From Eledone cirrhosa (lineage: Eukaryota), in assembly GCA_964016885.1 (NCBI GenBank), contig OZ024756.1, forward strand, positions 34,472,001 to 34,536,000: a stretch of 64,000 nucleotides of DNA, read 5' to 3'. The notes under the pieces are model-generated. The model was not told the origin of the DNA. It saw only the letters and a list, made by a program, of their open reading frames with translations, and made no database searches. Position 1 is the first letter of the stretch, and the number at the start of each line of letters is the position of its first letter. A program made the translations under genes and the position numbers. Positions 21,501 through 27,500 of this stretch are shown one piece after another.

Positions 21501-24500
21501 AAACAGAATTACCATTTTAAAGGGGTTCTATTAAATATAAATCTTCTAACATAATTTGATATAAGAATATGTTGTTGTGTTGTGTTATAAATATCTTAAT
21601 AATGAAAGAATTAATAATTTCAGTAAATCCATCTAAATTCTTGATTAATTAACTCAAATACAGGGTACTTTCATTAGAAATATGGTAACTAAAGGGTTAA
21701 GATATATTCTGGAATGAGAAGTGAGACAATGAAATACTGCTACTGACCTCAAGAACAGTACAAACTTTACCATTGGCTAAAGTAGACAACATATGTATAA
21801 AATGGGCATAAGCCATTGGAGAGACTCTCATTTGGCCCTAGAAAAATATGAAATAGCATGATTACAACACAATGTATTAACAGTATTGCTTAACTAATAA
21901 CATCCTGCACCACACGGAACCACATTAGTAAGAGATTCTTGAAAAGTATAAAGCAGCATTATTACTACATCATATTAAAATTTAAAGACTTTACTTTAGT
22001 TTACTTCAAATTTTCACACTGATCTGTCCACTAGTAAAGATAGCATAAACATTTGAATTAACAAACCCCGTCTTTAGATATTTTCTGTTGAATCAGTGCA
22101 GGATGTTAAGAGTTAAAGAAAACACAAACACACAGACATATACACATATATATATATGAGCTTATACACATATATATATATGAACTTATACACACATAGA
22201 TATATATATGAGCATATACATACATAGATATATATACAAGCTTATACATACATAGATATATATACGAGCTTATACATACATAGATATATATGAGCTTATA
22301 CATACATTGAAATAAGAGATTTAAATCTTGTACATTATATAAAACATTTAAAAAAAGATATCACCATCACCATTACCACAATCATTATCATCACCATCAC
22401 CATTACCACAATCATTATCGTTACCATTACCACCATTATTGTCATCATCACCACCACCATCACAATTATCATTCCCATCACCACAAGTAACATCATTATT
22501 ATTACTAGCAGAAAAACGAAAAACCACCCTTTGGGTTGTTTTTTCTGCTCGCATGTCTAATGTGCATATTTATATTATACGCAAATATATATACATATAT
22601 AGGAAGCACGTGGCTTAGTGGTTAGAGCATTGGCCTTGCAATCGAAAGGTTGTGAGTTCAATTCTCAGACTGCGTGATGTGTTGTTTCCTTGAGCAAGAC
22701 ACTTTATTTCACATTGCTCCAGTTTACTCAGCTGTAGAAATGAGATGATAGGGACATATCATTCCACTGCAAAGTGGACGTGGAGGTGCCACGGCAAAAA
22801 AGCACCCAGCACTCACTGTAAATGAGGTTGGTGTTAGGAAGGGCATCCAGCTGTAGAAATCAAGCCAGAATCAGTTCCCGTCCCACCCTTGCAAGCAGGG
22901 AAAAAGCGGACGTAAAATGAAATCATAATTGATAATTATTTCTACTTTTAGCACAAGGCCAGCAATTACCCAGTGCTTTACTGGTACTTTATTTTATCGA
23001 CCCTGTAAGGATGAAAGGCAAAGTTAACCTTGGCGGGATTTCAACTCAGAATGGCAAGGGCCATAACTCTATGCGTCGAAGAATGGCGTCCAACCCTCTA
23101 CCGATACTGCCAATCCACCGTATGAAATCATAATTGATAATATGCTCAGAAATTGGACGAAGACTATGTTACACTGTCTTCTGTAATCAGTAGAGTTATC
23201 CATAATAGTCATACTGAGGACATGACAACCTCTCTAATTTTGATGCTATGATAAAATGCACCCAGTACACTCTAAAATGATAGGTGCTAGGCAGGGCATC
23301 CAAGCAAATAAATTATGCCAAACATCTCATGTTTGAGTGAGACATGGTCCCACCCAGCCTGTTTGGAAGGACAATAACTCTGAAGAGGAACTAGCTCTGG
23401 CTGTAATGACCAACATAACTATTCCAGTATAAAGAGCAAACAAAAATTAATGTCTTAATGAGAAGATGTTATCTTAATGATTGATATTATTCTCATCAAT
23501 CTGTCAAATATGGGAGACAACTCCAGAGGATATTTCAGTCCTATGAAACCTCCTCAACAAAGAATAGATTTCACCGTACTTACTGAAAGTGTTGATGAGA
23601 GAGAATTTGAAAAATTTTTGTTTTTAAATAGAAGAGATGGTTGGTAAGATTTAAAAAAAAAAAGCAATACCTTCAGATCACCAAATGCGGAATCAAACCC
23701 TGCAGAGATGAGAACAAGCTGAGGATTGAACTAGGAATCAAATTGGAACAAATGAAAGAAAAGAAAAGAAAAGAAAAGAAAAGAAAAAGAGAGAGAGATT
23801 GAAAATCTGAATGTTGGTTGAATTTCATTGAGGTGGTGTTTCAGATTGAGTTGACCTCAAAATCTCTTAGTTGTGTTGCAAACTTCCAGCAAGGAGTCCT
23901 GAGAAACGCTCAACATTACAAGTACTCTCTACCATTTCCACCACTCCACCACAATAATAATAATTGTTTTACTTTTGGCACAAGGCCAGCAATTATGCCA
24001 GTGTATTTCTGGTACTTTATTTTATCGACCCCGTAATAATAATTATGATTTCCAGTGTAGGCACAAGGCCAGCAATTAGGCGGGAGGGGAAAGTTGATTA
24101 AATTGACCCCATAAGGATGAAAGGCAAAGCTAAACTCGGAAGGATTTGAACTCAGACCGTAGAGGGTGATAACTCTATACTGTAAAGCATGGTGTCCAAC
24201 GCTCAACTGATACTGTCAATCCTCCACACTATGTCAATCTAATAATAGTCAGGATCTTTACCATAAGCACAAGGTTAGAAACTTGGGAAGGTGGGGGAAT
24301 ATAGTTTATTTAATCAACCCCAGAACATAACTGATATTTCATTTTATTGGTCTCCAAGAAAAGCAAAATTTGGCCTCTGGTGGTAGTGGTGGTGGCAGTA
24401 ATATTACTTGTGGTGGTAGTGGTGGTGTTGGTGGTAGTGAAGGTGGTGCTTGTGGCAGTGATGGTGAAGGTGGTAGTGGTAATGACGGTGATGGTAGTGA

Positions 24501-27500
24501 ACTATTAACCTCTAAATTTACATATAAACATGCACACACACATACATATATACATACGGTGATGATGATATTATAATCTTCCAACATAATTTTAGTAAAT
24601 CCCTCAAAATTCTCCATTAATTAATAATTTATGTAATTTAGTTTATTAGAAATATGGTCTTGGAATGGTTAAAAAGACTCAGTAGCAGAGACTGACCTCT
24701 GAAGATAGGACTCAAGTCTGGGGTTGACTTTGGCCAAGATTGGAATAATTAATAATCTTAGTAAATCCTTCAAAATTCTTAATTAAATAATTGAAATACA
24801 GGGTTCCTATTCAACCCTTTAGCATTTAAACCGGCCAGAATTCTCTCACCTCTTTCTGTTCAAATCGGCCGTAACTGGCCACTCATACTGTTGTTAAGGT
24901 ATTGTTGTCAACATAAATAATATCAAAATCTTATAGATTCGATATTATGTGAGATAATTATGTGAGGGAAAGCCTTTATATTGAAAATTCAATAGTAAAT
25001 ATAGAGTAATGTAAATGCTAAAGGGTTAAATAAATCTCCAAACATAATTTTATATAAGAACCATTTAAGTTCTAAAGCCACCCATTGACCAGGACATTAC
25101 TGTCTTAGAATAATTAATAATTTTAGTATAAGAACCATTTGTTAATTGTTACTATCTTAGTAATGAAATAATGAATAATATTAGTAAATTCCTCAAACTT
25201 CTTCATTAATTAATTGAATTAGAGTATATTTTATTAGAAATAGTCACAAAATAGTTAATAATGATTGCTCATACATATCAGAGATGTATAGTTATATATG
25301 GAAGATGTTACAAGGTAGAGGAGGGGGTGAAGAAGGTGGATGAAGAGATGAAGTGAGGTAGGTTGAGGGGAGAGGATGAGACACAATAGCATACCTCAGG
25401 ACATCCAATAGCTGCATCATAACCAGAAGATATTAAGACCAATTGAGGGTCAAACTGAAATTGTACATCATAGCATAACATGTGGGGTGGATTATATAAA
25501 CAAACAAAAGAAATTAGACATGTAAACAATTACATATATGTATGTATGCATATTATGTCAGGCCAGGTTGCTGCTTGCTACTGGTACCATGTACAAACTG
25601 TGTGGTCGGTAACTAAATTGGCTCCCCCACCTGACCCAGGTCTGGCGAGGAGGGTTAGAACATAAAGAGCCAGGGAAAAGAAACTGCAAGGCATTTTGTT
25701 CAATGTTCTAACAATTGTGGCACTTCATTGGGACTGGAAAAAGAAAAGAGCTTTTAGAGTCTGTGTTGTGTAATCTGAGAAAGATTTGAGGCAATATACC
25801 TCATAATGGGTCCTTTTGTTGTTCAGTGAACCAAACAGCCAACTTATGAATTAATGTGTAAATGGTTGAGTGTTTCACAGACATGTTTACTCTTAACACA
25901 ATTCTCAAGCTGCTGGAGGTGGTTTTACCATTTATATTTTCTAGACAAGGTTGGGACAAAGTGGAAATGTTTATAAAACACTGTCTCATCAAATAGCTGG
26001 TCTGTATTTATTGTAAACATTGTAAATTCATGAAAAAGGGAAAGGCAAAGAGTTGATTGTTAGATTGTATGAGGAAAACAATTCCATTGATCTTTCCATT
26101 GTTGATACTATCTGTCAGTCACAACTCCAGGCAGAAGAACGGAGAGATGAGATTTGAACATAGAATGCATTGATCAGATACAGTAAGCCATCTTGCCCAA
26201 CTCTTTACCAACTCCTTGCATCCATATCAAAGCTGGAAAGAAGAAACTCAAAGGTGACCTCAACAGGATTTGAACTCAGTACACAGGGAGGTGAAACAAG
26301 TACACAGGCATTGAACCTTTTAGCATTTAAACCAGCCGTGTCCAGACAGATTCTCTTACCTATTTCTGTTCAAACCAACTGTAACTGGCCACGCATACTG
26401 ATGTTAAAATATTGTTCTCAAAATAAATAATATCAAAATCTCATAGATTCGATATTATGTGAAATAAAGTGTTTACCGTGAAAATACAATAGTATATATA
26501 GAGTAATGTAAATGTTAATGGATTTATTTTGAGATAATTATGAGGTAAAGTCTTTACCCCCAAAATACAATAGTACATATAGAGTAATGTAAATGCTAAG
26601 GGTTTATTCTGAAACCCTACCAATAATTAATAGAAATGGAGAATTAAAATGGAAAGTAAATAGTTATTCTATCTTACCTCATGTGCAACTGGCATCAGAA
26701 TATGGTTGAAGATGGCTAAATAATCAGAATCTGTTAAATTAACCTAAGAAGAGAGAAAACAGAAACATTTCAGTCTTTTATAATAATAACAAGGCCAGCA
26801 ATTTGAAGGGGGATGGGAAAGTCGATTAAATTGACCCCAGTGCATTACTGGTACTTTATTTTATCGACCCCGTAAGGATGAAAGGCAAAGCTAACCATGG
26901 CAGGATTTGAACTCAATAATAATGATAATAATAATGATGATGACATTGACCCCTACCTGGTTTAAAGGAACATTGATGTTAAAGCCGACCCCAGGACCTT
27001 TTCCAACAAAGTCATAGTCAGACTGTCGTAGGTTGGGCCAGAATTCTCCGTGTTCATAACGATGGATAGAAAAATATAAGACACTGGGAGAGAGGAAGAA
27101 AGGATTATATTAATGTGTATGTGTATGTACATATATGTATGTGTGTGTGTGTGCATATATATGTGTGTATGTGCAAGGTTTGTGTGTGTCTTGATGTGGT
27201 GAAGGCCTGTGGTGAAGGCTTGTGGCTCAGTGGTTAGGATGATTGCTTCTTGATTATAACAAGAACACCAGCAACAATAACATCAACAACAGCAACAATG
27301 ACATCAACAACAGTAGCAACAACAGCAACAACATCAATAACAGTAACAACAGCAACAATAACATCAACAACAGTAACAACAGCAACAACAACAGTAACAA
27401 CAACATCAACCGTAACAACATCAACAACGACAACAAGCAGTAAAGTAAAATTGTACATTGTTACTAACCGTGGATCGTCATAGTAACTGTATTGTGTGGC

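Follow-up and report, generated by a model that had tools for sequence, protein, structure and literature searches.

A duplicated exon at the gatekeeper residue of catalytic domain 1 in an octopus HDAC6 gene

A deacetylase gene with two copies of one exon

We analysed a 64-kb stretch of the Eledone cirrhosa genome (OZ024756.1, 34,472,001–34,536,000; contig C17 of the 3.0-Gb genome), referred to here as the window, whose minus strand carries a histone deacetylase (HDAC) gene with two versions of one short exon. Our favoured explanation, which we consider probable, is that the gene is an octopus HDAC6 in which an ancient exon duplication provides alternative versions of catalytic domain 1 (CD1), and that exon choice sets the specificity of the enzyme. 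A CD1 exon (26957..27083, minus strand) used as the homologue query recovered HDAC6 proteins from limpet to insect together with one Octopus sinensis protein, which maps to the window from 33621 down to about 6500. The joined window exons encode 685 stop-free residues with 79% identity to this protein; the start-codon exon was not located.

The two exons, A (25395..25454) and B (23671..23730), both on the minus strand, occupy a single slot between the constitutive exon 26678..26743 (minus strand, ending PVAHE) on the 5′ side and the constitutive exon 21748..21837 (minus strand, GQM..VLE) on the 3′ side, whose first residue aligns with position 275 of zebrafish HDAC10 chains. Each is 60 nucleotides (nt) long, in phase 0, preceded by AG and followed by GT, and the positions, ends and phase given in a first-pass annotation of the window all held. 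The copies are identical at 36 of 60 nt and 12 of 20 residues, and nine of the 12 common residues use different codons, in line with the synonymous divergence and good splice sites described earlier. Exon A contains GYD and ends G-C-P-E, and exon B contains GFD and ends G-D-L-K; the Asp of this G(F/Y)D motif is a zinc ligand, and the final Glu or Lys is the gatekeeper residue considered below. The reading frame stays open through the flanking exons with A only, B only, neither or both, the last as had been claimed. The introns measure 1223 nt (upstream exon to A), 1664 nt (A to B) and 1833 nt (B to downstream exon). The zones free of AG span 116 nt before A and 76 nt before B, compared with 31 and 51 nt at the flanking exons, and these longer stretches may mark regulated acceptors. 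A profile of the slot peptide, built including A and B themselves, scored A at 50.0 bits and B at 45.8 bits and found no third copy in the window, the next best match (7.6 bits) being the degenerate counterpart in domain 2 at 9707. Exon A lies between two copies of a high-copy element that bears short terminal inverted repeats (24808..25032 and about 26320..26618), and the ends of these two copies are 72% complementary over 29 nt.

We give next to no credence to the pair being an assembly artefact or a decaying duplicate. In short-read contigs (three runs, one sample) the depth over the two exons is similarly low and no differences within either are listed, although the sample may be the source of the assembly itself, a point in favour of an artefact, so that this coverage argues only against a local assembly slip. 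The refutation comes from the low nucleotide identity of two intact copies and from conservation across species, both copies matching annotated isoforms of other octopuses and of other phyla.

The remaining CD1 exons, all on the minus strand, begin at 33477..33621, which encodes the L1 loop W-I-P-D-F-T-E-Q-P, of HDAC6-CD1 length, with Phe at the zebrafish H82 position and no HDAC10-type insertion. They continue through three exons (32838–32701, 32488–32417 and 31796–31771, together 31771..32838), an exon with the catalytic His pair of PPGHH followed by G-Y-C, its Tyr at the zebrafish F202 position (28802..28903), the DWDVHH metal-binding exon (27469..27537) and the query exon. Downstream of the slot, three exons (21280–21174, 21079–20954 and 20552–20406, together 20406..21280) supply the catalytic Tyr of GGY, the end of CD1 and the linker. 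Domain 1 is a Zn-dependent class IIb HDAC domain (PF00850) in which PPGHH, DxDxHH, G(F/Y)D and EGGY are all intact with either slot exon, and it holds the only full set of catalytic motifs in the gene.

Thirteen further exons on the minus strand (6502..18457) encode a degenerate domain 2 and the C-terminus: 18457–18404, 15936–15882, 15590–15543, 14465–14440, 14243–14172, 13663–13598, 12433–12343, 10266–10207, 9707–9657, 8862–8779, 7670–7564, 7190–7123 and a candidate last coding exon from 6536. The second domain had been called dead from its sequence, and we agree: all four catalytic motifs of the CD2 found intact in canonical HDAC6 are gone, with DWDVHH replaced by DLCPDP (exon 13663–13598), GFD missing (exon 9707–9657) and EGGY replaced by EDGQ (exons 8862–8779 and 7670–7564). 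The ZnF-UBP domain is likewise absent, with no PF02148 in the octopod proteins and none of the 27 zf-UBP matches in the genome on the HDAC contig. Two Octopus species and Argonauta, along with two clusters grouping with them, share the dead domain 2 and absent ZnF-UBP. A search with the dead domain retrieved three of 2704 candidates, namely two octopod clusters and one intact HDAC6; Nautilus was not among them. Around 9657–9707 (neighbouring exons 10266–10207 and 8862–8779) the dead domain shares the exon borders of domain 1, its slot exon being single and shortened to 51 nt.

Orthology to HDAC6

Comparison of the gene with vertebrate class IIb enzymes reveals a mixture of features. Like vertebrate HDAC10 (zebrafish E274, P23-A-C-E helix), it combines an active and a dead domain in a similar fold and has Glu at the gatekeeper, via exon A, but its CD1 lacks the two-residue L1 insertion and has Cys in place of Asp two residues before the gatekeeper. 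With vertebrate HDAC6 CD1 (zebrafish K330, human K353) it shares an orthologous domain, equal L1 length, Lys via exon B, and Phe and Tyr at both constricting positions, whereas in vertebrate HDAC6 CD2 is active, a ZnF-UBP is present and, in all records examined, the slot is single (Lys; Met in one carp genus). This genus is Sinocyclocheilus, whose HDAC6 records (P0223, P0225, P0226, P0229, P0232) carry Met instead of the CD1 Lys gatekeeper.

A true HDAC10 orthologue that acquired a Lys exon would have the architecture and length seen here, and the gene gives one unbroken match to zebrafish HDAC10 residues 5–660. The structure prediction (predicted local distance difference test score, pLDDT, 77.5; predicted template modelling score, pTM, 0.86) also has HDAC10 as its top fold matches by E-value, but the alignment used for the model contained HDAC10 sequences, so this likeness is not independent, and the template modelling (TM) scores of 0.73–0.79 are about equal for HDAC10 and two-domain HDAC6 crystals. 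The trees argue otherwise. In a 31-row tree, from whose alignment the slot was removed, the window CD1 groups with octopods (support 100/100) within mollusc two-domain HDAC6 from limpet, abalone, bivalve and chiton (95/97), and joining the cephalopods to the HDAC10 clade was rejected by the approximately unbiased (AU) test (p 4.27e-05). In a 44-row tree it falls in the protostome HDAC6 clade (100/96), beside the second mollusc paralogue (91/78); which mollusc paralogue it represents is less sure than its membership of this clade. A 77-row tree served as a quick tree only. The missing L1 insertion, and the presence of the slot pair in ZnF-bearing two-domain mollusc HDAC6, further leave descent from HDAC10 largely refuted and very unlikely. 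The first-pass assignment to an HDAC6/10 gene is thus corrected: judged by the trees, this is the octopus HDAC6 orthologue, not HDAC10, and its domain 2 died independently of that of HDAC10, the two having converged on the active-plus-pseudodomain layout.

A second class IIb paralogue, its two domains both intact, occurs in gastropods and bivalves, abalone and oyster among them (P0267, P0271, P0268, P0246). The abalone second paralogue lacks a ZnF-UBP in our scan, and its three listed isoforms all have a C-P-E slot.

Other HDAC matches in the E. cirrhosa genome lie on C7, C20, C9, C12 and C27. C7 was rejected as a second class IIb gene, being class IIa with 72% identity to an HDAC4-like protein, as was C20, which has class I-type exons; the unopened C9, C12 and C27 matches were weaker against a limpet CD2 query. 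Among the best candidates, which were those scored, no class IIb gene besides the window gene was found in this genome, nor was an intact CD2-type domain or an HDAC6-linked ZnF-UBP. The CD2-type domain is the tubulin deacetylase in vertebrates, and octopods may therefore lack the tubulin-deacetylase domain of HDAC6, since this octopus genome seemingly has no intact copy. On C20 (G000:C20:21544690-21556680, L002–L004), three or four near copies of a class I deacetylase exon with DLDLHHGDG, perhaps HDAC8-like, lie in a stretch of about 12 kb, two of them with open frames; these may be another duplicated exon or gene fragments.

Conservation and splicing of the exon pair

The annotation had left open whether comparable exon pairs are described in other protostomes. 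They are widespread, and stand in RefSeq as predicted isoforms. In O. sinensis, isoforms X1 and X2 (XP_029647709.1, XP_036366924.1) differ at eight residues, all within the slot, and the X1 and X2 isoforms of O. bimaculoides (XP_014770301.1, XP_052830898.1) differ at the same eight. The Eledone exons A and B are each one of 20 residues away from their O. sinensis counterparts in X1 and X2, compared with 79% identity over the whole protein. These Octopus ‘histone deacetylase 6(-like)’ records come from the same gene with the same two exons, but their names draw no functional distinction.

We examined 24 clusters, octopods included, hand-selected for several members or isoform names. Nine contain isoform pairs that differ only in the slot, from 10 species of which nine are protostomes: the two Octopus species, two beetles, a butterfly, a sandfly, a nemertean, an abalone and a limpet. 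Besides those of Octopus, equal-length pairs of this kind were seen in Patella, Haliotis rufescens, Aricia, Dendroctonus, Lutzomyia, Asterias rubens, Lineus and Tribolium. A crab, a beetle, two snails and four bivalves make up the eight of 211 long representatives in which both exons stand in tandem, always in the order A to B. Across 18 protostome pairs from three phyla, the last three residues are C-P-E in every A exon and D-x-K in every B exon. Since order and end motifs are shared, a single origin is favoured, and the exon duplication is probably older than the split between molluscs and arthropods. The starfish Asterias rubens has D-P-E and D-P-K forms with 16 of 20 residues identical, a pair that may be independent in origin.

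Several observations weigh against this history. Over the first 17 slot residues, A and B are more alike within a species (0.71) than A exons are across species (0.67), a pattern that conversion between copies or repeated duplication would explain as readily as a single origin. In 15 of the 24 clusters, several of which hold one record only, no pair was seen; these include tephritid flies (15 of 51 members listed), Macrosteles, a tardigrade, Macrostomum, a barnacle, Limulus, Acanthaster, a chiton, two annelids and the second abalone paralogue. In the Limulus, barnacle and Acanthaster records the K form occurs alone. In the annelid records the only slot is D-x-E, and flatworms show C-P-L or C-P-Y (P0064, P0065, P0049, P0077; P0240, P0001, P0075), so on these sequences the gatekeeper takes further states in protostomes.

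The annotation had expected the two exons to be mutually exclusive. They are tandem and homologous, of equal length and phase, with intact splice sites, as mutually exclusive exons are, and alternative use is borne out by the Octopus isoforms that differ only in the slot. We infer that one slot exon is normally spliced in; exon A looks like the major form, and exon B may be minor or tissue-restricted. Strict exclusion is less secure, with double and skip models in several species: both exons are included in Lineus X1 and X4, Eriocheir X2, Saccostrea, Ostrea and Ruditapes X2, and neither in Lutzomyia X5 and two Dendroctonus models.

These models count against an exclusive switch, as do the following points. 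The run search listed no RNA runs for E. cirrhosa, and the RefSeq XP isoforms are predictions whose read support was not seen. The three short-read runs behave as DNA and are uninformative on expression, with no splice joints among the 15 of 1186 rows listed (22500–26800). Among 18 long proteins found only in Logan, whose contigs are about the length of their open reading frames and hence transcript-like, 16 are C-x-E, two D-x-E and none D-x-K, and in two cephalopod-like clusters all 19 listed members are A-type. Nor did examination of frame, intron length and RNA pairing yield a mechanism of exclusion. Frame-linked decay is excluded because all four combinations stay in frame, and a steric block is unlikely because the A–B intron is 1664 nt long. 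Inverted repeats across 21740–26800 are mainly simple repeats and transposon ends (25 of 130 listed). One pairing, of 25349–25325 with 23951–23925 (−27.6 kcal/mol), beat 12 of 12 shuffles, yet five of 106 real pre-mRNA pieces, itself included, did equally well or better, and it was rejected.

Such data could also mean that exon B is a conserved but rarely used minor exon, or that A and B are independent cassettes that lower activity through inactive double or zero products. The absence of K forms from the Logan-only proteins, the double and skip models in RefSeq and GenBank with no frame penalty, and an intron long enough to avoid a steric block all fit this alternative. Against it, exon B keeps its Gly, the metal-ligand Asp and D-x-K in all 18 pairs, as fits a folded and active product, isoforms with B only are annotated in nine protostome species, and the K form is the only one in the Limulus, barnacle and Acanthaster records. 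We consider the minor or cassette exon improbable.

Mutually exclusive exons near active sites are known, and the isoforms here are already database predictions. Passages of PMC7954323 and PMC4494069 describe tandem homologous exons that alter functional residues; the difference here is a swapped residue known by mutagenesis to set substrate class. HDACs are not mentioned in the main-text passages of either paper or in six text supplements of PMC7954323. We found no description of this exon pair or of its effect on the gatekeeper in listings from the open literature, a scope that leaves aside most subscription papers, bioRxiv supplements and the fly exon catalogue (10.1038/ncomms3460), so that a table entry may have escaped notice. 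We regard the pair as a genuine splice switch of ancient origin, placed at a residue whose part in specificity has been established by experiment.

The gatekeeper residue, predicted substrates and the origin of HDAC10

The last residue of the slot aligns without gaps to E274 of zebrafish HDAC10 and K330 of HDAC6 CD1. Within the zebrafish HDAC6 chain the aligned counterparts of the slot end are Lys in CD1 (G-D-P-K) and Leu in CD2 (G-D-P-L), so the alignment confirms the mapping proposed in the first reading (Glu as E274, Lys as K330, Leu in CD2). A single numbering offset converts the aligned His, Phe and Lys to H82, F202 and K330, the numbering used in the names of mutant structures. Octopus CD1 has Phe and Tyr at the two constriction positions (zebrafish H82 and F202; Phe and Tyr of chain 9k91). 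No specificity determinant of class IIb enzymes is better characterised than the swapped residue, and its two spliced states are those that separate vertebrate HDAC6 CD1 from HDAC10.

We propose that the exon duplication gave CD1 two versions of the strand and loop that bear the third zinc ligand and the gatekeeper. With exon B, Asp-x-Lys completes the vertebrate CD1 recipe of Phe in L1, Tyr after the His pair and Lys at the gatekeeper. A 2026 bioRxiv preprint reports deacetylation of free acetyl-lysine by CD1 and its inhibition by K330E (10.64898/2026.05.22.727066). By analogy with the vertebrate enzyme we infer, with good confidence, that the exon-B isoform is a CD1-type enzyme that would hydrolyse free N-epsilon-acetyl-lysine or C-terminal acetyl-lysine, and this set of residues lends good support to the earlier view of the Lys form as HDAC6-CD1-like.

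The exon-A form has the Glu gatekeeper of HDAC10, which is coupled with an invariant change of a near-invariant Asp to Cys two residues earlier. The proposed flip between Glu and Lys stands as to the residues, and left this linked change unweighed. The pairing of the two is tight, with Glu in 76 of 79 Cys-type representatives as well as in the A exons of all 18 pairs. Exon A is predicted to lose activity on acetyl-lysine with a free alpha-carboxylate, and amine substrates are its likeliest gain: Cys-Pro-Glu would repel carboxylate substrates and favour acetylputrescine, acetylcadaverine or N8-acetylspermidine.

In the alignment, octopus CD1 lacks the two residues that HDAC10 has inserted in L1 to form its P-(E/A)-C-E helix. 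According to passages of PMC5454378, E274L swaps the specificity of HDAC10, Hai et al. found the gatekeeper to be necessary but not sufficient, and removal of the L1 helix lowered polyamine activity 15-fold and raised lysine activity 16-fold, leaving a bifunctional enzyme. Because the insertion is missing and the helix-less mutant is bifunctional, the earlier reading of the Glu form as a polyamine deacetylase keeps its HDAC10-type gatekeeper and is otherwise reduced to a hypothesis of polyamine specificity. We see about even chances that the exon-A isoform favours amine-bearing substrates, with a specificity probably broader than that of HDAC10 given the missing insertion.

The slot might instead act as an on/off or tuning switch, in which B makes the acetyl-lysine enzyme and A a general internal-lysine deacetylase or a weak form with no role in polyamine metabolism. 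This account is a serious possibility, short of being the expected one. It draws on the absence of the L1 insertion and the fold changes seen on its removal from HDAC10, on the loss of the near-invariant Asp in exon A, and on the flatworm C-P-L and C-P-Y slots, which indicate that the Cys form tolerates other gatekeepers. The constancy of Glu in the A exons and Cys-type representatives speaks against it, as does the polyamine activity retained by the bifunctional helix-less mutant. So does the list of five HDAC genes, with no HDAC10 among them, given for fly and mosquito in passages of PMC7288346; if polyamines are deacetylated in these animals, another enzyme must serve.

On the reading that we prefer, in which each exon gives CD1 its own substrate class, exon choice would set the specificity of the whole enzyme in octopods and close relatives, because domain 2 is dead and the ZnF-UBP has been lost. 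Two deacetylases that differ in their substrates may come from a single gene, and past work on invertebrate HDAC6 may have unknowingly used a single isoform. If the isoforms differ as predicted, the exon-A form would be a candidate polyamine deacetylase for invertebrates without HDAC10, the pair would offer a natural test of the gatekeeper model on one scaffold, and a possible route to the origin of HDAC10 would come into view.

We set out this last idea tentatively and think it rather unlikely as a whole. An ancestral bilaterian class IIb enzyme may have switched by alternative exons between an acetyl-lysine salvage form (Lys) and an acetyl-polyamine form (Glu); protostomes would have kept the switch, the Glu/Lys pair of a starfish would be a remnant of it, vertebrates would have split the two forms into HDAC6 CD1 and HDAC10, and octopods would have lost the tubulin-deacetylase domain and rebuilt an HDAC10-like protein with spliced specificity. 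Passages of PMC4494069 describe splice forms separated by gene duplication in other genes. The best tree (44 rows) joins HDAC10 with vertebrate HDAC6 CD1 at 88/78, two alternative placements of HDAC10 survive testing (p 0.31 and 0.21), and the rows include no named amphioxus, hemichordate, tunicate or cnidarian sequence. As support is weak and other placements survive, a splice-form origin of HDAC10 stays a hypothesis. Standard-length HDAC10-type L1 insertions were seen in no sequences outside the HDAC10 clade, the named members of which are vertebrates, and passages of an annelid study use the single label ‘hdac6/10’ (PMC12153100).

Two records have mixed features: P0351 combines a three-residue L1 insertion with an intact second-domain slot, and P0340 groups with vertebrate sequences despite having two domains and Glu at the gatekeeper. 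Elsewhere in the window, an exon of a mitochondrial carrier (PF00153, E 7e-7) lies on the plus strand at about 2040–2150, convergent with the 3′ end of the HDAC gene.

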